Of a DNA stretch of 64,000 bases, positions 1-46,572 are shown piece after piece. Within the stretch, counting starts at the first letter, position 1, and each line of letters opens with the position of its first letter. The stretch comes from Candidatus Micrarchaeota archaeon (GTDB taxonomy: Archaea; Micrarchaeota; Micrarchaeia; Anstonellales; Bilamarchaeaceae). The notes beneath the pieces are model-generated. The model searched no databases. It had not been told where the DNA came from and saw nothing but the letters and a program-made list of their open reading frames with translations. The position numbers and the translations under genes are program-made. Location of the stretch: NCBI GenBank assembly GCA_038046805.1, contig JBBSVO010000002.1, positions 16,684-80,683 of the forward strand. Direction: 5' to 3'.

Positions 1-320
1 GTAAGCTCTATCATGGAAGAATCCGTTGGAACATTGTTCGCACCAATAGCCTGTTGGGATATGTCATTCATCACGCCCTCCATGAGCGGCTCCATTTCAT
101 TCAGAAACAATACGAGGAACAAAACCAGTATCACTGTTGATGCGGCGAAAACCATCTCGGCTTTTGCATTCTGCTCAAGGTTTTTCAGATCGAAATATTT
201 TGAAACCATCCACAGGATAGTCGCAGCAAACACTGATGCAATCGTTGCAAGGGCAACGGCGCCCATCCATTGCGGATCCGGAAGCGGTGCAATATTTCCT
301 GCCAGAACACTCATAATCAT
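1..320 (-). CDS. Partial membrane protein, paralog of the adjacent CedA/VirB6-like array (runs off window start)
   Basis: Not in ORF track; read manually from ATG at 320: MIMSVLAGNIAPLPDPQWMGAVALATIASVFAATILWMVSKYFDLKNLEQNAKAEMVFAASTVILVLFLV..., with the same N-terminal TM plus 'L...AK.E' motif as its neighbours; open to position 1. Confidence 0.8.
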   Translation of the reverse strand, partial: MIMSVLAGNIAPLPDPQWMGAVALATIASVFAATILWMVSKYFDLKNLEQNAKAEMVFAASTVILVLFLVLFLNEMEPLMEGVMNDISQQAIGANNVPTDSSMIEL

Positions 321-333
321 TACCTGACCTTTC

Positions 334-1494
334 TCATATCAGCCTCGTCAGGCTGCTTATGTCTATTTCTTCACCCATTGTCTTGCTTATGCCTTTTATT
401 GCATGTATTATCAAAAGAATGTTAAATGCTGATGCGAGTCCGAGTATTATCACAATTCCTATCATCATCATTGGGAGTATGAGGGCCATGTACATCGCGC
501 CTCCGGTTCCGCTTTTGATCAGATTAACAATGAGATTTCCGGTAGAATATTCCTGAACAGGGCTTGGAGCAGAGCCTGGCGGTCCATTGTTAAGGTTTGG
601 CGTAATCTTCGGGCCTACCCCTACCCAGTTCTCCGCGAATTTATCTGCATTGAGCTTTGCCTTATCTGAAGTTATACTAAACACCGGTTTGGCATAAGCC
701 TCCATATTTCCGATCGTTTCTTTTGCGAAATTATCTGTGGTTTCTCTTAATATCTCTCCGGTTATCACAGTCAAGGCAGGATATATGAACAAAAATCCTA
801 TTCCAATTGCAATCAATGTTCCTCCAATCCGCCTTGTTGGCGTGAAGCACCTCATCATTATCCCGATTGGCAGATAATATTTCAAAAATCCAACTAGCGC
901 GAATTCAAACACTACTTTCTGCGCGTAGTTTGTTATGAATACGATTGCAAGGAAATTTGTTGCCTGGTATAAGACATTTTTTATCGGGGCTCCAAGCCCT
1001 GCGCCTGGAGAGCTGACCAGTCCAAGACCCAGAGGCTTTGAAAATATAGTTGTACTTGCAAGCATGTCAGCCTGCATTGCAAAGAAGTGGTTTGTGATCA
1101 TTACTCCTATAATCGCTTCTCCATTGTAATTGAAAAAATCCATTGCCGAGCTGTACATGTTCCAATCCTTATGCGCCGATTCCGGGAATATCCACCCTAC
1201 TTTTATTTCGCAGAATCTTCCGACCATGAATGCTATCGCAATTATTATGATTGCCGTGACAAAAAGTTCATTTACCTCGAATTTCGCATATGCGCTGAGC
1301 TCCTGGTTTCTGAACATGACTCCAAAAAGATATATGATTGCAAGTATCGCTGCTGATGCCGCAAGCGCAATGCCTGCGATTCCCATCCAGTCTGGAAGTC
1401 CAAGTGCTGCCATTCCCGAACCGAAGCTTAGTTTCGCCGCAAGTTCGGTCGTCTTTCCAGCTTCGCACATGACACTTGTTATCTCAACTACCAT
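334..1494 (-). CDS. Polytopic membrane protein, array paralog (CedA/VirB6-like)
   Basis: 386 aa, multiple TM helices; motifs QELSAYAKFE, PIGIMMRCFTPTRRIGGTLIA, C-term GEEIDISSLTRLI. Confidence 0.8.
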   Translation of the reverse strand: MVVEITSVMCEAGKTTELAAKLSFGSGMAALGLPDWMGIAGIALAASAAILAIIYLFGVMFRNQELSAYAKFEVNELFVTAIIIIAIAFMVGRFCEIKVGWIFPESAHKDWNMYSSAMDFFNYNGEAIIGVMITNHFFAMQADMLASTTIFSKPLGLGLVSSPGAGLGAPIKNVLYQATNFLAIVFITNYAQKVVFEFALVGFLKYYLPIGIMMRCFTPTRRIGGTLIAIGIGFLFIYPALTVITGEILRETTDNFAKETIGNMEAYAKPVFSITSDKAKLNADKFAENWVGVGPKITPNLNNGPPGSAPSPVQEYSTGNLIVNLIKSGTGGAMYMALILPMMMIGIVIILGLASAFNILLIIHAIKGISKTMGEEIDISSLTRLI

Positions 1495-1529
1495 GTTTTA
1501 CCCTCTCGCAAATATTCATTATGCAATTC

Positions 1530-2834
1530 CTATATCAATTTCACAAACGAAGTAAAACTCACTTCTGAGCCGAAAAACCTTGCGATTTCCTTTGCCGCAG
1601 TCAGTGTAACAAATATGTTTATGAACGGAAGGATAATGCTCACAATTACGATGTAATATACCGCGCTTTTCACTATGTCAAATACAAGGCTGATTACCCC
1701 TCCTATGAGTATCGGAACAAGTATTGATCCAACGAGCATTGCGAGGATTATCGCGGTTATTCCAGCCCCAAAAAGTCCTGTTGAGGTAAAGAAATTTTCC
1801 AGGAGTGTGTCGCTTGGGAGTACTACCGGGGAAGTTAGTTTGTATGCCTCCCAGTTCATTATCATCATTACTGGATAAACGATTACGAATGAGAACACCA
1901 GCGCAAAGAGCGCGGTTCCTGCACTGCGGGTTTGAGGGAATGCCCGAAGCAGCATTGCCGCGGGAATAAATATTGCGAAAACCCATTTCTTTGTAAAGCA
2001 CAATATATAGAAGTGGGCAACCCATTCAACAAGGGTTGCTGATAAAAATTGTATCACGATGCCAACGATATCTACAATCGGCTTTAACACCGGACCAACG
2101 TTGAATGAGAACATTGCCTTGAACGTTATTCCTACGTATATTGTTGCACTGTAAAGTGTATGCAGCCACATATTAAACAGCAAAAGAGAGGAAAGATTGC
2201 TTGCTATCTGGTAAGTCATATATTGCGAGTATATCATCGCAGCGTCTATTATCGAAGTAGTCTGTTTGTATATGGCGTCTTCTGCAAGTTCCGAGCCGGG
2301 AGCTATTTTGACATTGAACCATATATTCATCGTGACCATTATTCCTATGATAAAAACTGCCAGAAATATTGTCATTAGTGTCTGCCACCATTCCTCTCTG
2401 GCTATTGAAAGAAGTTGAGGTGATTGCAGTGCCTGACCCACAAGGTATAATACAGCGATTGCCAGAAAGATTATTCCTGCTGCATATATAGAATATGAAA
2501 GCATGTTGGCGTATTTTCCAGCGTCAAATTCTCCCTTTGCCTTTGCAGCCTTTGGGGCGGCGTCCTCTGCCCATGCATCCTCGCATGTTATCCTGTCAAG
2601 CGGTCCGGAAATGGTCTTGAATGCCCAACTGCCTATATTCTTGAGCCCGTCTATAGAGTAAGATTGGATAACATTGCTTGAATCCGTATATGATTTCCAG
2701 CTGTTTGGATCGTTTGGTTCTGTGGGTTGCGCAAATGTAACACTACCTAAAATAAAAATGAGCAAAATCACTGCAAGTGCAGGTACCCCTGACCTGGGCT
2801 TCCATACTTGTGCAGTTTCCTTTGTTTCGTTCAT
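1530..2834 (-). CDS. Polytopic membrane protein, array paralog (CedA/VirB6-like)
   Basis: 434 aa; signal-like N-term, PQLLSIAREE, PAAMLLRAFPQTRSAGTALFA, C-term GSEVSFTSFVKLI. Confidence 0.8.
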   Translation of the reverse strand: MNETKETAQVWKPRSGVPALAVILLIFILGSVTFAQPTEPNDPNSWKSYTDSSNVIQSYSIDGLKNIGSWAFKTISGPLDRITCEDAWAEDAAPKAAKAKGEFDAGKYANMLSYSIYAAGIIFLAIAVLYLVGQALQSPQLLSIAREEWWQTLMTIFLAVFIIGIMVTMNIWFNVKIAPGSELAEDAIYKQTTSIIDAAMIYSQYMTYQIASNLSSLLLFNMWLHTLYSATIYVGITFKAMFSFNVGPVLKPIVDIVGIVIQFLSATLVEWVAHFYILCFTKKWVFAIFIPAAMLLRAFPQTRSAGTALFALVFSFVIVYPVMMIMNWEAYKLTSPVVLPSDTLLENFFTSTGLFGAGITAIILAMLVGSILVPILIGGVISLVFDIVKSAVYYIVIVSIILPFINIFVTLTAAKEIARFFGSEVSFTSFVKLI

Positions 2835-2905
2835 TTTATCATCCGTATTTTTTACTCTTTTATAATCTCTTATGATCTAATTGCGTGGTTATCAATCTCC
2901 ATTTA

Positions 2906-4228
2906 TCATATCAGGTGTGTTAGTCCTGCAATTTCCAGATCTCCGCCAAATATTGCAGACATGCTTTTTATCGCAGCAATAGTTGCCATGACCCCGAGAA
3001 ATGAAAAGAACAGGGAAAAAAATGTAAGCCTGCTTGCCGCGTCTATGTATCCTCCGCGTGCAAGGGTTTCAGTGATGACTTTCCCAGGATTATACCAGTT
3101 TTGCTGGTCCAGTTCTTTGCCCCAGATATTAACTTCGTCTTCCATACTCTTTGTTTTCTTTCCTTCTTCCACAGCATTATCTATTACCCCGCAAAAATCC
3201 AAACCCAAATCCGTCCCGCCTAATTTGTTCATCGGACTTCCGGTTCCTGTTCCGCCAAATGCATCTGTTCCATAATTGCTTTTTCCAGCCGCCTCTATCT
3301 CGTTATACCCTAACACTCCGCCACTCATGATCTTTCCGAATATCGGAAGGTCATCTTTTTCAACATATATAGAACTTATCGCGAGCGCATTCGGATCCCC
3401 TCCGGATGCAGTTATCGCCTTTAGTTTCATCTGCCCGTAGAATACTCCTCCGAGCGCATAAAACATTGGGAATATAAAAAACATCGAAAGAGCCATTGCC
3501 ATTAGTAATCCTCCAAGTTTTCTGGTGAAGAAAAATGTTCTAAGTACGATTCCAATGGTAAACATTACTGGGAAGATACCCATTGCTATAAACCTGAGAA
3601 GAACTTCCTGGAATTTCGTTATCGTCATCAATTTAACTGTATAATCAAACATATTTGATTTTACTATATTTCCCTGCACGAAAAATCCTTTTATTGGAGT
3701 ATATGCAAATACCCCTGTTTTTTCTCCTGTTATTTCTATGTTCAGGTTTACTTCTGCAAGCATGGACGTGACGATATATTCCCGATACATCTGCGAAGCA
3801 AGTTCATTGCCTTCGTTGAATATGGAATTCAGGAAATGCATCCCAACCTTTATGTGGCAGGGAAGTCCGTCGTAGTAATCTGCCTTTGCAAACGCATCGC
3901 TACAGACTGCCTGCCCCAGAACGTCTTTTCCAATTGGTTCGTTCGGGTTTGTAACAAGCGATTCCGCGACCTGGTTTGCACCTCCCAAAAACGAAATAGT
4001 AAGTACAATGAGGACTGCAGAGTAAATTACTTCCACAACTTCTATTCTTGCCCAGGTCTTTATCTTGTCATTGGAAAGAAAGGCCCCAAGAATATATACC
4101 AAACTAAGAATTCCAGCAGATATTACAAGCAATACTGCTGCAATTTGTAACCAGTCAGTGTATACGCTAGTGAGAAATCCAAGCGCATTGCCGTTTTTCA
4201 ATAATTCAATGTCAATCATTTTTATCAT
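2906..4228 (-). CDS. Polytopic membrane protein, array paralog (CedA/VirB6-like)
   Basis: 440 aa; DKIKTWARIEVVEVIYSAVL, GIVLRTFFFTRKLGGLLMA, C-term GGDLEIAGLTHLI. Confidence 0.8.
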   Translation of the reverse strand: MIKMIDIELLKNGNALGFLTSVYTDWLQIAAVLLVISAGILSLVYILGAFLSNDKIKTWARIEVVEVIYSAVLIVLTISFLGGANQVAESLVTNPNEPIGKDVLGQAVCSDAFAKADYYDGLPCHIKVGMHFLNSIFNEGNELASQMYREYIVTSMLAEVNLNIEITGEKTGVFAYTPIKGFFVQGNIVKSNMFDYTVKLMTITKFQEVLLRFIAMGIFPVMFTIGIVLRTFFFTRKLGGLLMAMALSMFFIFPMFYALGGVFYGQMKLKAITASGGDPNALAISSIYVEKDDLPIFGKIMSGGVLGYNEIEAAGKSNYGTDAFGGTGTGSPMNKLGGTDLGLDFCGVIDNAVEEGKKTKSMEDEVNIWGKELDQQNWYNPGKVITETLARGGYIDAASRLTFFSLFFSFLGVMATIAAIKSMSAIFGGDLEIAGLTHLI

Positions 4229-5274
4229 GCCTTTGAGATTATAAATTTCGTAACTGCATTTATAAACGAAAACGTAATTACTGTTGAGAATGCGGGCAGG
4301 AATAATGAGACCAGCGAAAGCTCCCCGAGTGCCTCAAGTAAGGGCTTCATTAGTAAAAATGTGACGCTGTATGCCATGCTTTCCATTGTGAGGGTACTTA
4401 TCGCGGTTCCGGCAAATGCTCCAAGTGCTGGTACTCCCATTGCTCCGAATAGAAACTTATTTACATCAGCCAGTATTGTGCCGCCAGCTCCGATTATTGC
4501 AGCACTTCCTACAAATCCCCATTTCCAGTAGCCTATTTCCCCAGAACCGATATATGGGATATATTCAGTGCCCCGTTCGGTAATCTGCCATAAGTCATTA
4601 AGTGCCATTTCATTTAGCACATACGTCATAGGGAGCACTGTCTGGAAGGCTATAGATGCAACTATCAAAAATGTCCCGGCATCTTTTGTTGGCGGAAGAA
4701 ATCTGAGAAGAATTCCGGCGGGCAGTAAGAATTTATATGCTATGGCGTCTACGATTGAGAGTATAAAAACCTGTGCAGAAAGGCTGCTATATACCATTGC
4801 CAGTGCATATCCAAGAACATTTGTTATTCCAACAACACCATCAGAACCCGGGGCTACCTTGTATATCCATGTCCATACAGCTTCGTGCGGCCTGAAATAC
4901 AATGTGTTATATGTTGAGAATGCAACCTGAATTGTGTACACGTCATTTATTGCCTCAAGAACGCCCTGAGACTTTATCTTTTGCAGAAATTTCATCGCTG
5001 AATTTATTGGGTCGTTTCCTATCATTGTGCATGAAGCGGATTTCATTCCCTCAAAAAATGCCACTGCAAGTATAAGCGTAAGAAGTGCGAGCCAGATATC
5101 TCCCAGTCCAACTTTCGCGCCTGCCTCCCATTCCGGTCTTTTGAACATTATCCCGGCGGCGTATTTTATCAGGGTAAAAAGCGCCAGGAATATGACTACT
5201 ACTGCAGTTAGCTGATAATATTCAATGGATGGATTTGCTACGGCAAACGGGAATCCACTTACAACACACGCCAT
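4225..5274 (-). CDS. Polytopic membrane protein, array paralog (CedA/VirB6-like)
   Basis: 349 aa; PEWEAGAKVG, PAGILLRFLPPTKDAGTFLI; 4-bp overlap with next gene. Confidence 0.8.
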   Translation of the reverse strand: MACVVSGFPFAVANPSIEYYQLTAVVVIFLALFTLIKYAAGIMFKRPEWEAGAKVGLGDIWLALLTLILAVAFFEGMKSASCTMIGNDPINSAMKFLQKIKSQGVLEAINDVYTIQVAFSTYNTLYFRPHEAVWTWIYKVAPGSDGVVGITNVLGYALAMVYSSLSAQVFILSIVDAIAYKFLLPAGILLRFLPPTKDAGTFLIVASIAFQTVLPMTYVLNEMALNDLWQITERGTEYIPYIGSGEIGYWKWGFVGSAAIIGAGGTILADVNKFLFGAMGVPALGAFAGTAISTLTMESMAYSVTFLLMKPLLEALGELSLVSLFLPAFSTVITFSFINAVTKFIISKA

Positions 5275-5333
5275 ATGTCTGTCCTCCAGTTACTCTAGTC
5301 TGTTTACACTGTTTACTCTAATCTGCTTACTGT

Positions 5334-6611
5334 TTACACCAGTTTTGTTATACCTATTATTTCCTGTTCTCCGCCAATGATCGCGCTTATGTTTCGGTAC
5401 ATTGTTATTGTTATTATTATTTCGAATACTGATGTTACGATTACAAGAATGACAAATTGCGATACGATTACTACTTCTTCAACTATGAAGTAATAAAGAC
5501 CCTGGACTACTCCCACGGCAGGACCGACACCCCAAAGAAGGGATGTAATTGAAATCCCAAAGTCTCCAAAAAGTTTTACCATAAATTTGAATACATCTTT
5601 TGCGGTTTTCAGTACGCCCGTAATATTGTCCCACATGTCTCCAAAAAAGCCAGTTATTTTTGTTGAGGTTGATTCATCGGGCTTTGTCCCATAATTTGCC
5701 ATGACACCGCTTGCGCTTTCGCCAGAAATTTTTTCCCACGTCTCTCTCATTTCCACCAGTTTGTCTGTTTTTGTCTTCAATGCATTTTCCTCTGCTGTGG
5801 GGTCTCCGTTTGCAGCGCAAAACCCTATCGCAGTGGGAACATATACCATATCTATGGGCTTATACACATCGAATATGAGGTAATTAGAAAGAATTATGCT
5901 AAGCGGATAAACAAAATATGCGACAATACATATCGCAATTATGCTCGAACCTGTTGAGCGGAGCATAGGAAATGCGCGCATAACCAATCCAAGCGGAAGG
6001 AGTATTGTTGGGATAACGTACGTTGCAAACTGGATGAGGTGTTGTTTTGATACTATCGCTACCATCACCATTCCTATTGCCTCAACCAATACTGTGTGTG
6101 CATTACTCAGAAGTGACAAGCCCACTAGTGGAGGAACAGAAATTGGCAACACTGCCAGTAATGGATTAAACGTTCCAGCTGAAATATAAATCGTTGAAAG
6201 GAATCCAATGAGCATTTCAAAGAGATATAAGCTTACGTAAATTGATTTTAGTTCCTGAAATAATAATTCAAGAGATGCATACGCGATACCAAGATGCGAT
6301 GGACTTAGGGATTTTGCCAAGGTGGTTGTGTCGCAACTATTAGCTGTTCCGGTTATCACAAGTCTACAGGCGCCCTCCCACATTATTCCCTGAAAAAAGA
6401 ACCATCCACCTACAATTATAATGCTCATTATAAGTGCTGCTAGTTCTTCTTTTGCAGCTGCGTTGAGAGGTGGGTGCTGCAGAAAATATGAAGCAAGATA
6501 CATTCCTCCGGTTACAGCTATTCCGATCAGGATAGCAATTCCGATATACTGGATGGGGAACGTGGCAGAAGTTAAAGTAAAAAGTAGCGGAAGCAACGCA
6601 GTTATTCCCAT
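5334..6611 (-). CDS. Polytopic membrane protein, first gene of the array (CedA/VirB6-like)
   Basis: Start reassigned to ATG 6611 (MGITALL) to avoid overlap with the divergent gene; PPLNAAAKEE, PLGLVMRAFPMLRSTGSSIIA, C-term GGEQEIIGITKLV. Confidence 0.8.
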   Translation of the reverse strand: MGITALLPLLFTLTSATFPIQYIGIAILIGIAVTGGMYLASYFLQHPPLNAAAKEELAALIMSIIIVGGWFFFQGIMWEGACRLVITGTANSCDTTTLAKSLSPSHLGIAYASLELLFQELKSIYVSLYLFEMLIGFLSTIYISAGTFNPLLAVLPISVPPLVGLSLLSNAHTVLVEAIGMVMVAIVSKQHLIQFATYVIPTILLPLGLVMRAFPMLRSTGSSIIAICIVAYFVYPLSIILSNYLIFDVYKPIDMVYVPTAIGFCAANGDPTAEENALKTKTDKLVEMRETWEKISGESASGVMANYGTKPDESTSTKITGFFGDMWDNITGVLKTAKDVFKFMVKLFGDFGISITSLLWGVGPAVGVVQGLYYFIVEEVVIVSQFVILVIVTSVFEIIITITMYRNISAIIGGEQEIIGITKLV

Positions 6612-6634
6612 GTATAAATCTGCGGACCCAGTTC

Positions 6635-6642
6635 TTTTAAAT
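6635..6642. promoter_or_regulatory. Putative bidirectional TATA box (TTTTAAAT)
   Basis: Palindromic TTTAAA core centred about 27 nt from both the minus-strand ATG (6611) and the plus-strand ATG (6665). Confidence 0.5.
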
Positions 6643-6664
6643 GTATCCTCTGTAATTATTTGTG

Positions 6665-7249
6665 ATGAATCCAATAACCTGTCCGGGAGCTTTCAGAACC
6701 GGTTTTATCTTTTCCATAGATTCGTTCGTTGCATTTTCTCTTTCACTAGTGGCAATTTATTCAATGCTCTTCTTTTCCAGCATCCCCTCAGCGTATTATT
6801 CCTCTCTTATGCAGGCACATTATCTTGCAAAGGACACGCTCACTGCCCTCTCACTTTCAAATTCTTCTGAAGATGGGGTAAGTGAATTGGGCTATCTTTT
6901 ATTTGTGGTTTCAAAACCAGCACAATCTGCCGTCATAGAAGAAAGGATTGGTCCGCTTATTCCAAATCAATTCGGTTATCTGGTTGAAACAAGTGAAGAT
7001 GGCGAAGAATGGGACGTAGTATACGACACAAAAGATAATCCATCTGATTCACATAACAAGGCATATAACAAACTAAGAGCATCTGCAGGAACGCTTATTT
7101 TCGGTTATGCATCCTCTCCAAAGACCCCGCAAAGCCCATATCGCTATATTACCTGCAATGGCCCCTACACACAATGCGGTCCGGCATCAAGTCCATATCC
7201 CCGTGCAACTGGAAGCATGAAACTCGTGCGGTTGGTGGTGTACGTATGA
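6665..7249 (+). CDS. Class III signal peptide (type IV pilin-like) protein
   Basis: RTG|FIFSID followed by a hydrophobic helix; soluble C-terminal domain. Confidence 0.7.
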   Translation: MNPITCPGAFRTGFIFSIDSFVAFSLSLVAIYSMLFFSSIPSAYYSSLMQAHYLAKDTLTALSLSNSSEDGVSELGYLLFVVSKPAQSAVIEERIGPLIPNQFGYLVETSEDGEEWDVVYDTKDNPSDSHNKAYNKLRASAGTLIFGYASSPKTPQSPYRYITCNGPYTQCGPASSPYPRATGSMKLVRLVVYV

Positions 7250-8817
7250 CGAATTATAAGGGATTCTTTTTCGTGCTCGTCTCGTTTTTCATACTGGGGT
7301 ATATTCTTACATCGTTGACTCTTTGGACAAAATCCATAGATGTTGCAGAGAAGAAATTCGCTGAAAAATTCAAATTTTCCAATATCGAGCTTGCTGTTTC
7401 GCAACTTACAGAAGAAAAAGTTTCTGATTTCGCAGAGATGAGTGCATATTACGCACTTTACAAATTAAATGAGCACAGCATAAATTATCCGGTTGTTCCA
7501 GTCGAGGGTAGTTCAGGGAGCGAAGCTGATTTTAAGAATGCGAAAGACGCTGTCTGGTCTATGATACAAAACGGAAGTGCATCTGGAAATTATTTTGAAG
7601 AAAACGTGCCTCTTATTTATGATACCTCCGAACAGTCCGATCTTACGTTTGCAGGGTGGTTCGGTTCAATCAACAAAAGCCTTTCATATATAGGCGCGCA
7701 GGTGGATTCATTCGGGGTTTCCGGATTCACAATGAATCAGACGGACTTTTCCCATCTTAACTATTCGTTCAAGGTTGATTTTTCCGCATCTGACAAAAGC
7801 GGTATCATGTTTATCACACGTTCGTTCGTTGTCAATGGAACTCTTGAATTGCAGGGACTTGACGACCCGGCAGTTGCAAGAGAAACAAAAAAAATATTAA
7901 ATGGGAGCGAAGTGCGAAAGCAATTCTTTTTCCATGATGATTACCCTTCACCAGCTTCAACCAATCCTGCGCAAATCGCTGCAGGTTCTGCAGGCCAGGG
8001 GTGGTTTTACGGTGCAGTTGTTCAGGCAATCGATGCTCCTGCTATAAAACCGTTCCAGCGAAATACCACGATTTTGGTTGGCACATACGAAGAAATAACC
8101 TCCCTGGTTGGTATTAACTATAATTTCCAGGATTTCGGTGCGTTCATCCTCACGAGCGAGCCATCAACTGTGGATTCTGGTTGTGGTGGTTCAAAGAAAA
8201 ACGAGCTTAACACATTCAATGCAATTAATTATGATTCAACTTCCTGTTCTGCAAAGATAAACGGAGGGTCAAAAACAGAGAAGCCGTTTATTGTGGCAAA
8301 GGATTTCCAGATTGCCGTTCCATACCCCGGGTTTGATTCAACGTTCGTCCTGTTTGTGAATTCCGCGGACCAGTCCGAGGTGTCATCGAACCCGGAAAAG
8401 AAATCCGGCTCTCCGAAAATTTACAATATAGAATTACTTCGGGATTATGCAATCTGCAGTTATTACACTGCGAATCCAAAGGCTCCGTCCTATTTCCAGC
8501 GCCTGTTTAAGAATTCTTATGAACTGGAAGGCGGAAAGCTTGGAATAGAATCATTTGTCTTCGGAAAATGGCTTGGCGGAAGTGATTATCCTGCTGCCGA
8601 CATTTATAGTAGATTAGATCGGGAAATGTTCAAGGAAATAACCGGAACAAACATACGTGGAATGCCCGGATGTAAAAACAAGGAGATGTGCGGAAGCGAT
8701 TCTCAGGTTGGACATTTCAAACTAACAGACCCAAGCGCTAAAAATTATATAGGGCCCGATGCAACTGATTCAACAAACGGTTTGTTTTGTAGTAAAGGTG
8801 CATCGTGCGGAAACTGA
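7246..8817 (+). CDS. Large pilin-like/adhesin protein with class III signal peptide
   Basis: Start reassigned to ATG 7246 (ATGA overlap with upstream stop); MTNYKG|FFFVLVSFFIL; Cys pairs in the C-terminal part. Confidence 0.7.
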   Translation: MTNYKGFFFVLVSFFILGYILTSLTLWTKSIDVAEKKFAEKFKFSNIELAVSQLTEEKVSDFAEMSAYYALYKLNEHSINYPVVPVEGSSGSEADFKNAKDAVWSMIQNGSASGNYFEENVPLIYDTSEQSDLTFAGWFGSINKSLSYIGAQVDSFGVSGFTMNQTDFSHLNYSFKVDFSASDKSGIMFITRSFVVNGTLELQGLDDPAVARETKKILNGSEVRKQFFFHDDYPSPASTNPAQIAAGSAGQGWFYGAVVQAIDAPAIKPFQRNTTILVGTYEEITSLVGINYNFQDFGAFILTSEPSTVDSGCGGSKKNELNTFNAINYDSTSCSAKINGGSKTEKPFIVAKDFQIAVPYPGFDSTFVLFVNSADQSEVSSNPEKKSGSPKIYNIELLRDYAICSYYTANPKAPSYFQRLFKNSYELEGGKLGIESFVFGKWLGGSDYPAADIYSRLDREMFKEITGTNIRGMPGCKNKEMCGSDSQVGHFKLTDPSAKNYIGPDATDSTNGLFCSKGASCGN

Positions 8818-8822
8818 TATTT

Positions 8823-9275
8823 ATGATAAACACAGGATTTAAGACCCCTGATTTACTGTTCGGAACCCGTCGTGGTCAGGCTTCTACCGAGATGCTTGTT
8901 ACAGTGGCAACAATCCTGGTATTTACAATTCCGATAATTCTTCTACTTTTTGCGCTTTCTCAATATGGTCAGGAATCCACTTCAATCGCACAGGCACATG
9001 CAACTGTTCGCATAATTTCGGATTCAATCAACACAGTTTATATCCAGGGTCCTGGCGCTGAGAAAAGCCTTTTGGTTGGCATACCTGGAAACGCGGATCT
9101 TCTCAAAGTAGAGAATGGCGAAGTTTCATTGATACTTAGGACTTCTGGTGGAATGTATGAGGCAAGCAATCCTTTGCTTACAAATGCATCTGCTGGTTCA
9201 GATTTTTCCAATAAATCCGGGTTATTACCAGTGAAAATAAAGAATGAAAACGGAGTGGTAGTTGTATATGGATAA
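8823..9275 (+). CDS. Type IV pilin-like protein (class III signal peptide)
   Basis: RRG|QASTEMLV with Q+1/E+5 and a hydrophobic helix. Confidence 0.8.
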   Translation: MINTGFKTPDLLFGTRRGQASTEMLVTVATILVFTIPIILLLFALSQYGQESTSIAQAHATVRIISDSINTVYIQGPGAEKSLLVGIPGNADLLKVENGEVSLILRTSGGMYEASNPLLTNASAGSDFSNKSGLLPVKIKNENGVVVVYG

Positions 9276-9771
9276 CTGCAACGTTTCGCGTTCCGAGTCC
9301 CGCGTTTCGCGTTCCGGTCAGGTTGCAACCGAGCTTATGCTTTACTCCGGCGTATTCCTGATAATAGTTATATCCGTTGCATCTGTCCTTTATCTTTTAC
9401 AGGGCAGCGACATAAATTCTCTTGAATATTCCATTGTCAAAGAAACCGCAGAATCGTTCTCAGATTCAATCAATCTGGCAGTGCGGGGGGGACAGACGTT
9501 TTCGTATTACTATAATTTCCCGCGTACTGTGCTCGGAGGAGGTTATTCCATAATATTTACAAAATCCTCTGCAATCGTGCACTGGCAAGGTTCTAGAGGA
9601 AATATGAGTTATTCCTATTCTATTGCTCCGGCTAACTTTACATTCAATGGTTGTGTTGTTTCGTTGCAGGGTGGTTCTGCCGGGCAGCTCGATAGCCAAA
9701 AAGGGCAGAATCTACTCATAGTCACAAATAACGGAAATGGAATAGAACTCATGCAACCCGGGTGCAGTTGA
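9268..9771 (+). CDS. Type IV pilin-like protein (class III signal peptide)
   Basis: RSG|QVATELML; leader contains a heptamer repeat tract. Confidence 0.8.
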   Translation: MDNCNVSRSESRVSRSGQVATELMLYSGVFLIIVISVASVLYLLQGSDINSLEYSIVKETAESFSDSINLAVRGGQTFSYYYNFPRTVLGGGYSIIFTKSSAIVHWQGSRGNMSYSYSIAPANFTFNGCVVSLQGGSAGQLDSQKGQNLLIVTNNGNGIELMQPGCS

Positions 9772-9780
9772 GGTGTATTG

Positions 9781-10305
9781 ATGAAAAGACAATTGATGAA
9801 AGGACAATATTTCAGCTTTGATGCGATTATTGCTTCGGTCGTTTTCGTACTCACAGTACTTGCGCTAATGTCTTACTGGAACAGTGTTAAAGCAGGGATG
9901 GAAACCTACTCGGATGAAACAACAAAAGAAGCAATTCGCATTTCAGATCTTTTACTTTCCCCCCCGGAGCCACTTGAAATTACAGATTGCAGCGGAACTG
10001 CTGATAAAGAAGTCAAGAGACTTGGTTTTGCGGTTTCCTGGGAAAATCGTCAATTATCCAAACAACTTCTTACGAATTGCCAATCTATAACTCAGGAGAA
10101 TCTGCGTTCTTTGCTTGGAACTCCTTACAATGTTTCAATATTTGTAAATTCCTCAAGCGGATCGTTTGACTCACTTCAGATAGGAAAATCATTTGAGGAC
10201 ACTCCACAGTCAAAAAATGCTGCAAAAGTAAGACGGCTCGTTGCCCTTCGCGATGATACGGGAGAGGCAACTCTTGCAACAATGGATATTCTCGTGTATC
10301 AATAA
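9781..10305 (+). CDS. Type IV pilin-like protein (class III signal peptide)
   Basis: MKG|QYFSFDAII plus hydrophobic helix; GAGGTG RBS upstream. Confidence 0.75.
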   Translation: MKRQLMKGQYFSFDAIIASVVFVLTVLALMSYWNSVKAGMETYSDETTKEAIRISDLLLSPPEPLEITDCSGTADKEVKRLGFAVSWENRQLSKQLLTNCQSITQENLRSLLGTPYNVSIFVNSSSGSFDSLQIGKSFEDTPQSKNAAKVRRLVALRDDTGEATLATMDILVYQ

Positions 10306-45005: not shown

Positions 45006-46103
45006 ATGGATCTATGTAAAGCATCTGTTTTGAATTCTTCGGATACTCTCTCAAAGGCAACTGAGGAGTTAGTGCGAAATGGTACGGCTGTAATTATTAT
45101 GAATGAAGGGGTCTACAAGGGCATTGTTGACGACCGCCACCTGAGTTTTGGCACAAATGATGCAGCAAAGGAAAAATGCGGTTCGGTGTGTGTTAAGGCA
45201 CCTTCTCTTAGACAAGCTTCTTCGCTGAATGATAAACTAAATGCCTTTTTGGCAGGTCATTTCAAGGCATTGCCAGTCTTTGATGACTCTGGCAAACTTG
45301 AAGGTCTTTATTCCCGCTCGGATTTTCTAAGAGACCTGTTATCCCAGAGACTCATTCCGGATGCGACTGTTGATTCGATAATGAATTCCCCTGTTTTTAC
45401 TGTGGATTATGAAGATAAAGTTGGTGCTGTCAGAAGACTTATGAAACAACACGATGCAAACAAGCTTTTAGTTCTCAAAAACGGAAAGCCATTTGGCATA
45501 ACTTCTACGTATGATCTTGCCCCCGTTTCCATGAATCCAAAAAAGAGACGTGGTGCATCCACTATTTCAGAAGTAACCAGTGTGGATGACTTGTCAATCT
45601 CTTCGTTTGTACGGGAAGGGGTTCATAGTATCGAACCCGGAAAAACAATTGCCGATGCCATGAAAAAAATGGCCGATGCAAAAATCTCCTCGCTTACAGT
45701 TATGTCTAGTGGAAAAGCCAGCGGTGTTGTTGCTGCAACGGATATATTCAAAATTGTCCAATCCCTGTTGTCTGACAAACAGAATATTCTCATAAGCGGA
45801 TTGGGCGAAGATGATAAATCTGCGTACAGCTACATCTCCGACAGAATCTCAAATATCTTAGGTAAGTTCGCATCTATTCCACAGAGATCTGCAAGTGTTC
45901 ATGTGAAAAAGGGCAAATCTGTTTATTCAGTAAAAGTTCTGCTGAGTGTTGATGGATTGCCAATTTCCGTTTCTATTGAGGGACACGATCTAAGAAGTGC
46001 GGTGGATGCTCTTTCAGATGAGCTTCATGTCGTCCTTCAAAAGAAAAAGGAAAAACATTTGGAAGATCGCTACAAAAAGTATGTAAAGGGTGACATCTAT
46101 TAG
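45006..46103 (+). CDS. Multi-CBS domain protein with C-terminal HPF/RaiA-like extension
   Basis: Four CBS-like repeats (LPVFD..G.L.G, IMNSPVFTV etc.). Confidence 0.8.
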   Translation: MDLCKASVLNSSDTLSKATEELVRNGTAVIIMNEGVYKGIVDDRHLSFGTNDAAKEKCGSVCVKAPSLRQASSLNDKLNAFLAGHFKALPVFDDSGKLEGLYSRSDFLRDLLSQRLIPDATVDSIMNSPVFTVDYEDKVGAVRRLMKQHDANKLLVLKNGKPFGITSTYDLAPVSMNPKKRRGASTISEVTSVDDLSISSFVREGVHSIEPGKTIADAMKKMADAKISSLTVMSSGKASGVVAATDIFKIVQSLLSDKQNILISGLGEDDKSAYSYISDRISNILGKFASIPQRSASVHVKKGKSVYSVKVLLSVDGLPISVSIEGHDLRSAVDALSDELHVVLQKKKEKHLEDRYKKYVKGDIY

Positions 46104-46572
46104 AACGGTCGCGGACATATCTCTCAACGGCCCAGCCAAAGGCCAAACCAAAGGTCAGGTAAGTTCCGAACTCCTTATTGTAGTTTCTATAATTCTTGTT
46201 CTTTTTATTCCGCTAATCGTTGGTTTTTATCTGAAAATATCCGAAGTTAACGAGTCTATATCCGAAGTTCAGGCCCAATTGGTTGCATCCCGTATTGCAA
46301 GCCTGGCGAATTCCATTGGAAATCTCGGTTCTTCATCTGGTGTAATCACTGATATATATCTTCCTTCATCTATCGAAGAATTAAACGTGGCTTCTCTTGG
46401 AAGTGGTAGCGAAGTCGTTATCCATGCAAGAGTTCGTGGTGGTGTAAGCGAGCTTGTCGAAATAATAAAATTTCCTGTCGAAAAGACGCTTACGATTGAA
46501 AATCCAAGAGAGGGTATGGTAAGGCTTGAAATATCTTCGGAAAAAGGAATAATAAAAATAAATAAGGTGTGA
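46090..46572 (+). CDS. Type IV pilin-like protein (class III signal peptide)
   Basis: TKG|QVSSELLI plus hydrophobic helix; similar to 8823-9275. Confidence 0.8.
   Translation: MTSIRTVADISLNGPAKGQTKGQVSSELLIVVSIILVLFIPLIVGFYLKISEVNESISEVQAQLVASRIASLANSIGNLGSSSGVITDIYLPSSIEELNVASLGSGSEVVIHARVRGGVSELVEIIKFPVEKTLTIENPREGMVRLEISSEKGIIKINKV

Follow-up and report, generated by a model that had tools for sequence, protein, structure and literature searches.

Six paralogous VirB6/CedA-like membrane genes as the candidate platform of a type IV secretion-like system in Micrarchaeota

The six-gene array at the left end of the window

The stretch of DNA analysed here, called the window in the following, comprises 64,000 nucleotides of a Candidatus Micrarchaeota archaeon (assembly GCA_038046805.1, contig JBBSVO010000002.1) and corresponds to G000:C2:16684-80683 of the source genome G000, which is 1.2 Mb in size and 86% complete. 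Its left end carries an array of six paralogous membrane genes, M1 to M6, all on the minus strand and encoding proteins with 5-9 predicted hydrophobic segments each, and close by on the plus strand a five-gene pilin operon, P1 to P5 (Table 1). The homologs of the array genes carry Micrarchaeota as source labels. The pairwise local identities of 17-40% mark the six as paralogs, the stop and start codons of neighbouring array genes abut or overlap, and a core motif, [GA]..[LM]R.[FL]..[TL][RK]..G, is present in all six proteins; among the 10,104 stop-to-stop frames of G000 it occurs in only ten, all of them members of the family. These data bear out the sequence-only reading of the locus, an earlier annotation that had described six co-oriented polytopic paralogs with a common motif. 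Its motif details hold in part: the short core is found in 6/6 and the C-terminal tail motif in the four proteins M2, M3, M4 and M6, with a variant in M1 and none in M5, but the long form of the motif, ascribed to five proteins, strictly fits four of the six, since M5 has TK and M6 has LR. The array had also been expected to continue beyond the window. Only the remaining 680 bp of M1 lie there, followed by a PIN_5 ribonuclease gene, and the array is therefore exactly six genes long. Its neighbours are housekeeping genes, and it does not lie on a mobile element. None of the six window paralogs is assigned to a family by Pfam or NCBIfam. In one aquifer metatranscriptome, 14 contigs with at least 99% identity and a depth of ~2-3 cover parts of M3-M6 and P1-P4, which does not by itself demonstrate transcription.

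Table 1. Array and pilin genes at the left end of the window (window coordinates; aa, amino acids)
Feature	Position	Strand	Description
M1, array position 6	1..320 (5′ part only; whole gene G000:C2:16002-17003)	-	VirB6/CedA-like paralog, 333 aa; last array gene
M2, array position 5	334..1494	-	386 aa; its model (pLDDT 77) has R388 TrwI/VirB6 as best full-length match
M3, array position 4	1530..2834	-	Paralog, 434 aa
M4, array position 3	2906..4228	-	Paralog, 440 aa
M5, array position 2	4225..5274	-	Paralog, 349 aa, without C-terminal tail
M6, array position 1	5334..6611	-	Paralog, 425 aa; first array gene
Divergent gap	6612..6664	.	53 bp; palindromic TTTAAA at 6636-6641, ~27 bases from both start codons (M6 at 6611, P1 at 6665)
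P1	6665..7249	+	194 aa, class III signal peptide-type start; putative separate system
P2	7246..8817	+	523 aa, class III signal peptide-type start, large surface domain; putative separate system
P3	8805..9275	+	~150 aa, pilin-type start (cleavage G/QASTE); putative separate system
P4	9262..9771	+	~160 aa, pilin-type start (cleavage G/QVATE); putative separate system
P5	9778..10305	+	175 aa, start KG/QYFSFD, matching DUF7287/DUF7288 weakly and modelled with a long N-terminal helix; putative separate system

Likeness to VirB6 and CedA, and the partner genes

The homology to CedA and VirB6 that had been proposed from motif resemblance is supported by profile data, next to a weak structural likeness. 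The CedA profile NF041796 has matches in 40 of 121 Micrarchaeota genomes, all 30 matches that were fetched lie inside genes of the family, and there is no match in the ten genomes without the family, whereas the control profile PF04610 (TrbL/VirB6) gives three matches, all outside the family. The M2 model has R388 TrwI/VirB6 as its best full-length structural match, with a weak score. Among the profiles, that of CedA came out in favour of the proposal and PF04610 against it, matching in 3 of 121 genomes, in none of them in a family gene, and in none of 107 diverse family members. By score, the family stays far from the curated models: the best CedA (NF041796) score is 27 bits against a cut-off of 330 and the CedB score is 114 bits against 700, which places it outside the CedA equivalog and the Ced system proper. 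The family profile also picks up four pilin genes of G000 at E-values from 3e-4 to 0.05, the weak likeness being between its N-terminal hairpin and the VirB2-like pilin, and hhalign likewise gives a weak match of the family to this pilin (E 7e-4, probability 27%). When solved structures were searched by sequence with profiles of M2, of the broad family and of the pilins, nothing meaningful came up.

The distribution of the family was followed in these 121 genomes, which were drawn evenly across the phylum and include the unpublished G029, on which alone no claim is based. The family is present in 111 genomes, a VirB4-like ATPase in the same 111 and a VirB2-like pilin in 110. Ten genomes of five families (G018, G020, G046, G056, G077, G086, G113, G114, G115, and G119) show no match to the family, the ATPase or the pilin, the broader profile included; they form a natural comparison group for lifestyle. 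As to the range outside the phylum, 2,789 clusters match; hits with a name come almost all from Micrarchaeota, and single Methanothrix and Marsarchaeota records may be mislabelled. In other orders, one operon comprises VirB2-like pilin(s), six paralogs, two genes for proteins with two transmembrane segments (2-TM), the gene of the VirB4-like ATPase and, after two small genes, those of a coiled-coil protein and of an 800-aa membrane-anchored protein. This full operon was found in 8 of 10 ATPase-centred loci (4/4 in family f9, 3/4 in f7, 1/2 in f8) and in three named records, the loci being chosen from the best matches and not randomly, in related genomes. In the taxonomic order to which the window belongs, the operon is split (in G000 over several loci), two arrays are often present, and there is a one-copy set consisting of pilin, single paralog, 2-TM gene, ATPase and coiled-coil gene.

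In G000, a profile of the six window paralogs finds seven more. Six form a second array, array B (C2:152755-160393). Behind it come a cysteine-rich lipoprotein-like gene of 1,221 aa and a membrane-anchored giant gene of more than 1,726 aa that is cut by the contig end (whole region C2:152755-169319); a lipoprotein-like gene lies 3′ of B-type arrays in most loci fetched. The thirteenth paralog, V (C6:224-1231), lies directly 5′ of a 260-aa 2-TM gene and a 480-aa ATPase gene, whose best matches are CedB (E 1e-32) and VirB4-like families, and these together with a coiled-coil gene make up the one-copy set (G000:C6:224-4263), which may be a separate, more Ced-like system. A small pilin gene stands 5′ of this set in 9 of 22 named loci. 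In genus g5 (G050, G059, G089, G109, and G118), the ATPase of the set matches in two pieces, which points to an intein or an insertion; similar long gaps occur in L127, L130, L132, and L137. A second copy of the 2-TM and VirB4-like ATPase genes is located on C3 (G000:C3:160906-167558; L056:8907-15559), in an operon of 2-TM gene, ATPase, small 2-TM gene, coiled-coil gene and 887-aa anchored protein, a form present in all 111 genomes. The VirB4-like ATPase is devoid of its own membrane part and is preceded by one or two separate 2-TM genes, whose product resembles TraC-like/PrgI clusters with a score of 0.80-0.82, to be taken as a lead. VirB2-like pilins are encoded by six genes of G000 (C2:108998-110204, C1:9221-9535, C4:135177-135899, and C4:115463-115921; three in tandem), one of which has a long Gly/Ser/Cys-rich insert ahead of the pilin part. 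No coupling protein (VirD4) was detected by PF02534 and PF12696 in the 86% complete G000, where only two VirB4-like genes and one HerA were found. The idea of one ATPase per array was dropped: in families f5 and f12 and in G039, numerous paralog matches stand against a single ATPase, and where there is a second ATPase it goes with the one-copy set.

The earlier suggestion of a VirB4-like ATPase as partner is well supported by this joint occurrence and by the shared operon in other orders, and the search that it recommended for VirB4-like ATPases and VirB2-like pilins has succeeded on both counts. Homology to type IV secretion system (T4SS) components together with the VirB4 partnership is regarded as very probable.

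Six fixed positions and the pilin operon

Six paralogs are present in 46 of 48 array loci; one locus has five and one is split. In a midpoint-rooted FastTree tree of 298 proteins and 235 columns, from which the five-gene locus L060 was left out, the paralogs group by array position: position 2 in 49/49, position 5 in 49/49, position 1 in 45/49, position 3 in 44/49, and position 6 in 44/48, while position 4 falls into two sister groups. The four f7/f8 arrays have their own clades at positions 1, 3, 4, and 6, and the similarity between f7/f8 and f9 arrays is highest on the diagonal at 6/6 positions. On the strength of the grouping by position, arrays A (that of the window) and B are a block duplication of an older six-gene set. 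Position 2 is special in that the C-terminal tail motif is absent in 45 of 49 arrays; in nine same-family loci (L035-L043) it also contains an additional pilin-like segment towards its N-terminus, as do positions 4 and 6 of L046 (E 1e-9 to 1e-17 for all of these). From these patterns, we infer that the six paralogs are non-interchangeable subunits of one assembly. A heteromeric assembly, as in the channel proposed earlier, is probable in view of the fixed number and order, the block duplication and the distinct position 2; that all six form a single hetero-oligomer stands slightly better than even. The VirB6 rings known so far are reported to be pentamers (PMC12857230), which would make an arrangement of five subunits with the tail and a sixth, special one as plausible as a six-membered ring. 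A complex prediction for M1+M3+M2 (score 0.02, mark 0.32) gave no verdict and was used neither way.

The five genes next to the array do start in the opposite direction with class III signal peptides, as had been described, and the cleavage motif is conserved in 96 of 98 orthologs (P1 19/19, P2 20/20, P3 18/19, P4 19/20, P5 20/20). The order P1-P5 is kept in 20/20 loci, P1 of one and P3 of another not being separately called. The apparent lack of P2 in f7/f8 (0/60 in a single-protein search) was rejected as a detection limit, the P5 profile matching in 54/60. Since the P5 model shows a long N-terminal helix (12-43) with a head unlike solved pilins, an absence of matches that excludes nothing, minor pilin-like is a safe label for the five. 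G000 has ATPase-platform pairs at C6 255-260 kb and C3 139-142 kb and a prepilin peptidase, below cut-off, on C14. A lone P3 paralog with a class III-type start is located at 46090-46569 (+) of the window.

Taken together, we favour, with a probability of about 0.75, the reading that the products of M1-M6 form the membrane platform of a chromosomal T4SS-like machine ancestral to most Micrarchaeota, with P1-P5 belonging to a separate system. Against it weigh the uniformly weak structural and profile scores to VirB6/CedA, the missing PF04610 matches, and the fact that the pilin system is not cleanly separated: in 9 of 21 same-family genomes its operon is found beyond the other end of array A at a distance of no more than ~12 kb, in G116 it lies ~10 kb from the array, it adjoins the array block in G087, it stands behind array B and the lipoprotein gene, together with a TadA-like ATPase, in G083, and a T2SSE ATPase gene follows 2 of 48 arrays on the 3′ side. 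These neighbourhoods also speak for array and pilin operon being one co-regulated contact apparatus, comparable to Ups and Ced in Sulfolobales, in which pili gather the cells and the channel transfers DNA. In G000, the single palindromic TTTAAA near both starts is likely, by sequence, a shared TATA box, and Ups and Ced are reported to cooperate although they are separately encoded (PMC11868833). The divergent pairing, however, recurs in 0/20 orthologous array-A loci and 0/20 orthologous pilin loci. The place of the array upstream of P1 is taken by a tRNA synthetase gene in 13 of 20 loci, and in a 14th this gene is next but one; in 14 of 17 orthologs (17 of 19 P1 loci were covered), a separate TATA-like box stands at -28 to -31 of P1, whatever its neighbour. 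The P5 match is at least 30 kb away in 4/4 single-contig genomes with a located array, P5 matches (106 of 121 genomes) include 2 of the 10 array-less genomes, and housekeeping genes are linked to the array as often as the pilin operon is. A sigma-70 promoter scan, which does not cover archaeal promoters, found nothing. Such a coupled apparatus is considered unlikely, and the pilin genes, once proposed as its conserved co-regulated part, are not supported in that role; the system has VirB2-like pilins of its own. Of the expected synteny, the divergent linkage failed and the looser neighbourhood held. The operon is quite likely not an obligate part, and its simplest reading is an old gene neighbourhood that was rearranged in G000. 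Cooperation of the kind seen for Ups with Ced is possible by analogy; the pairing as such is incidental and not the important part of the locus.

Two other explanations concern the paralogs themselves. They could be VirB6-like and yet interchangeable, each forming its own homo-oligomer for other hosts, substrates or stages, as maybe in rickettsial VirB6 paralogs. A single subunit type can apparently suffice in the one-copy set that holds the thirteenth paralog in relatives, the summed length of the surface loops lies anywhere between 290 and 1,175 aa, and Anaplasma has four tandem VirB6 paralogs (PMC7648143). Nonetheless, alternatives should be gained and lost singly, whereas number and order are fixed across orders and the set was duplicated as a block; the abutting or overlapping codons and the structurally different position 2 are likewise at odds with this explanation, which seems rather doubtful. 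More remote is an unrelated helical membrane family, such as a transporter, scaffold or protein-export channel, whose VirB6/CedA matches would be chance likeness of hydrophobic helices. The weak scores and the lack of TrbL matches would fit, but chance hardly confines the 30 fetched CedA matches to family genes when the control profile matches elsewhere, no Pfam family is common to more than one of the 107 members, and neither the operon context nor the exact joint occurrence with VirB4-like and VirB2-like genes depends on fold scores. This makes it highly improbable.

Comparison with known systems, proposed mechanism and possible function

The Ced system of Sulfolobales (CedA/CedE, CedA1, CedB/CedD) and the Ted system of Thermoproteales (TedA, TedC, TedB) likewise have a chromosomal archaeal VirB2, VirB4 and VirB6 core. 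Their pilin is described as a homolog of the N-terminal part of the membrane protein (PMC9905601), which parallels the weak likeness in Micrarchaeota, Saccharolobus has more than one VirB6 paralog (PMC11868833), and the Micrarchaeota system, judged from G000, shares with them that no coupling protein was found. Unlike Ced/Ted, it has six fixed paralogs, often in two arrays plus the one-copy set, an ATPase without membrane part behind one or two 2-TM genes, extra conserved genes and scores far under the CedA and CedB cut-offs. The conjugative T4SS of R388, which provides the best structural match of M2, differs in that TrwI is described as a homopentamer (PMC12857230), as opposed to six paralogs; the Micrarchaeota family differs from conjugative systems further in the lack of a PF04610 match and of a detected coupling protein, in its housekeeping neighbours and in not being on a mobile element. 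The chromosomal T4SS of Patescibacteria is similar in that it occurs throughout a lineage of small, host-dependent cells and includes VirB2-like pilins as well as PrgI/VirB3 (PMC12102498), to which the 2-TM protein might correspond; virB6 and prgI are reported there as essential for growth in one strain. It is bacterial, and a fixed six-paralog array is not described in the part of that source available. In the rvh T4SS of Rickettsiales, another host-dependent lineage, tandem VirB6 paralogs with long variable extensions occur (PMC7648143; PMC2653234), in a diderm envelope with an outer-membrane core and VirD4; the present data hold no evidence for a common origin of the two VirB6 expansions. 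As for P1-P5, scattering of class III genes away from ATPase and platform is reported for the archaeal type IV filament system 1 (Epd-like) in Nanobdellati/DPANN (PMC13705601), and their layout is the same. The P5 head matches no solved pilin, and P5 only weakly DUF7287/7288; membership of P1-P5 in system 1 would be a candidate assignment.

In T4SS machines, VirB4 powers the extraction of pilins and VirB6 serves as platform or protochannel. By this model, the six different subunits would co-assemble into one ring or stalk, of five tail-bearing subunits and the tail-less position 2 or of six members; the VirB4-like ATPase would dock below it via the 2-TM proteins, and VirB2-like pilins would be pulled out of the membrane and stacked on the platform, giving a VirB2-type tube that could reach another cell. 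P1-P5 would be a self-contained minor pilin-like operon of a type IV pilus system with ATPases, platforms and peptidase elsewhere, brought opposite the array by local rearrangement. The six old and distinct paralogs probably form the core of a conjugation-like contact machine across most of the phylum. As to its function, uptake of nucleic acids or other macromolecules from a host is our tentative guess, by analogy, because no coupling protein was found in G000, the genes have the character of a chromosomal core set in a phylum that depends on hosts, DNA is what the closest archaeal systems import, and a similar chromosomal T4SS is retained in Patescibacteria (PMC12102498; bioRxiv 10.64898/2026.06.21.733656). 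DNA exchange between related cells, export of proteins, and a purely adhesive role each appear clearly less probable. A bolder and speculative version, which we consider unlikely as a whole, is a phylum-wide feeding organ, in which a T4SS-like ring of six subunits, or of five plus a gate subunit, attaches to the host or penetrates it and takes in nucleic acids or other macromolecules. The array could then correspond to the 21-nm barrel, as yet unidentified, that has been seen in the cell envelope of Microcaldus variisymbioticus at the docking sites of host nanotubes (PMC11329633). Array B, together with the lipoprotein and the giant protein behind it, would be one specialised version and the one-copy set another.

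No account of a six-paralog T4SS-like system in Micrarchaeota was found in the main texts, without supplements, of the openly readable literature searched, including the accessible parts of PMC10849945 and PMC10266531. The system would work like Ced/Ted and VirB6-based T4SS, and by score it is outside both Ced proper and Pfam TrbL. Tandem VirB6 paralogs as such have precedent in Rickettsiales (PMC7648143), and a platform of six fixed paralogs, if true, would be a new T4SS architecture. How DPANN archaea attach to and take up material from hosts is an open question, and contact structures have been imaged whose proteins are unknown (PMC11329633). The VirB2-VirB4-VirB6-like set in 111 of 121 genomes provides candidates to be sought in proteomes, tomograms and host co-culture transcriptomes, and it parallels the T4SS of Patescibacteria, for which there are reports of pili at the interface with the host and of host RNA serving as food (bioRxiv 10.64898/2026.06.21.733656).

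Two further observations concern the surroundings of arrays in other families. In family f13, a T2SSE (VirB11/TadA-type) ATPase gene lies directly 3′ of the array on the same strand (L082:13020-14330 and L083:2-994). In family f2, a protein with an SLT transglycosylase-like domain and a 1,867-aa surface protein are encoded divergently upstream of array A (L053:16039-18243).
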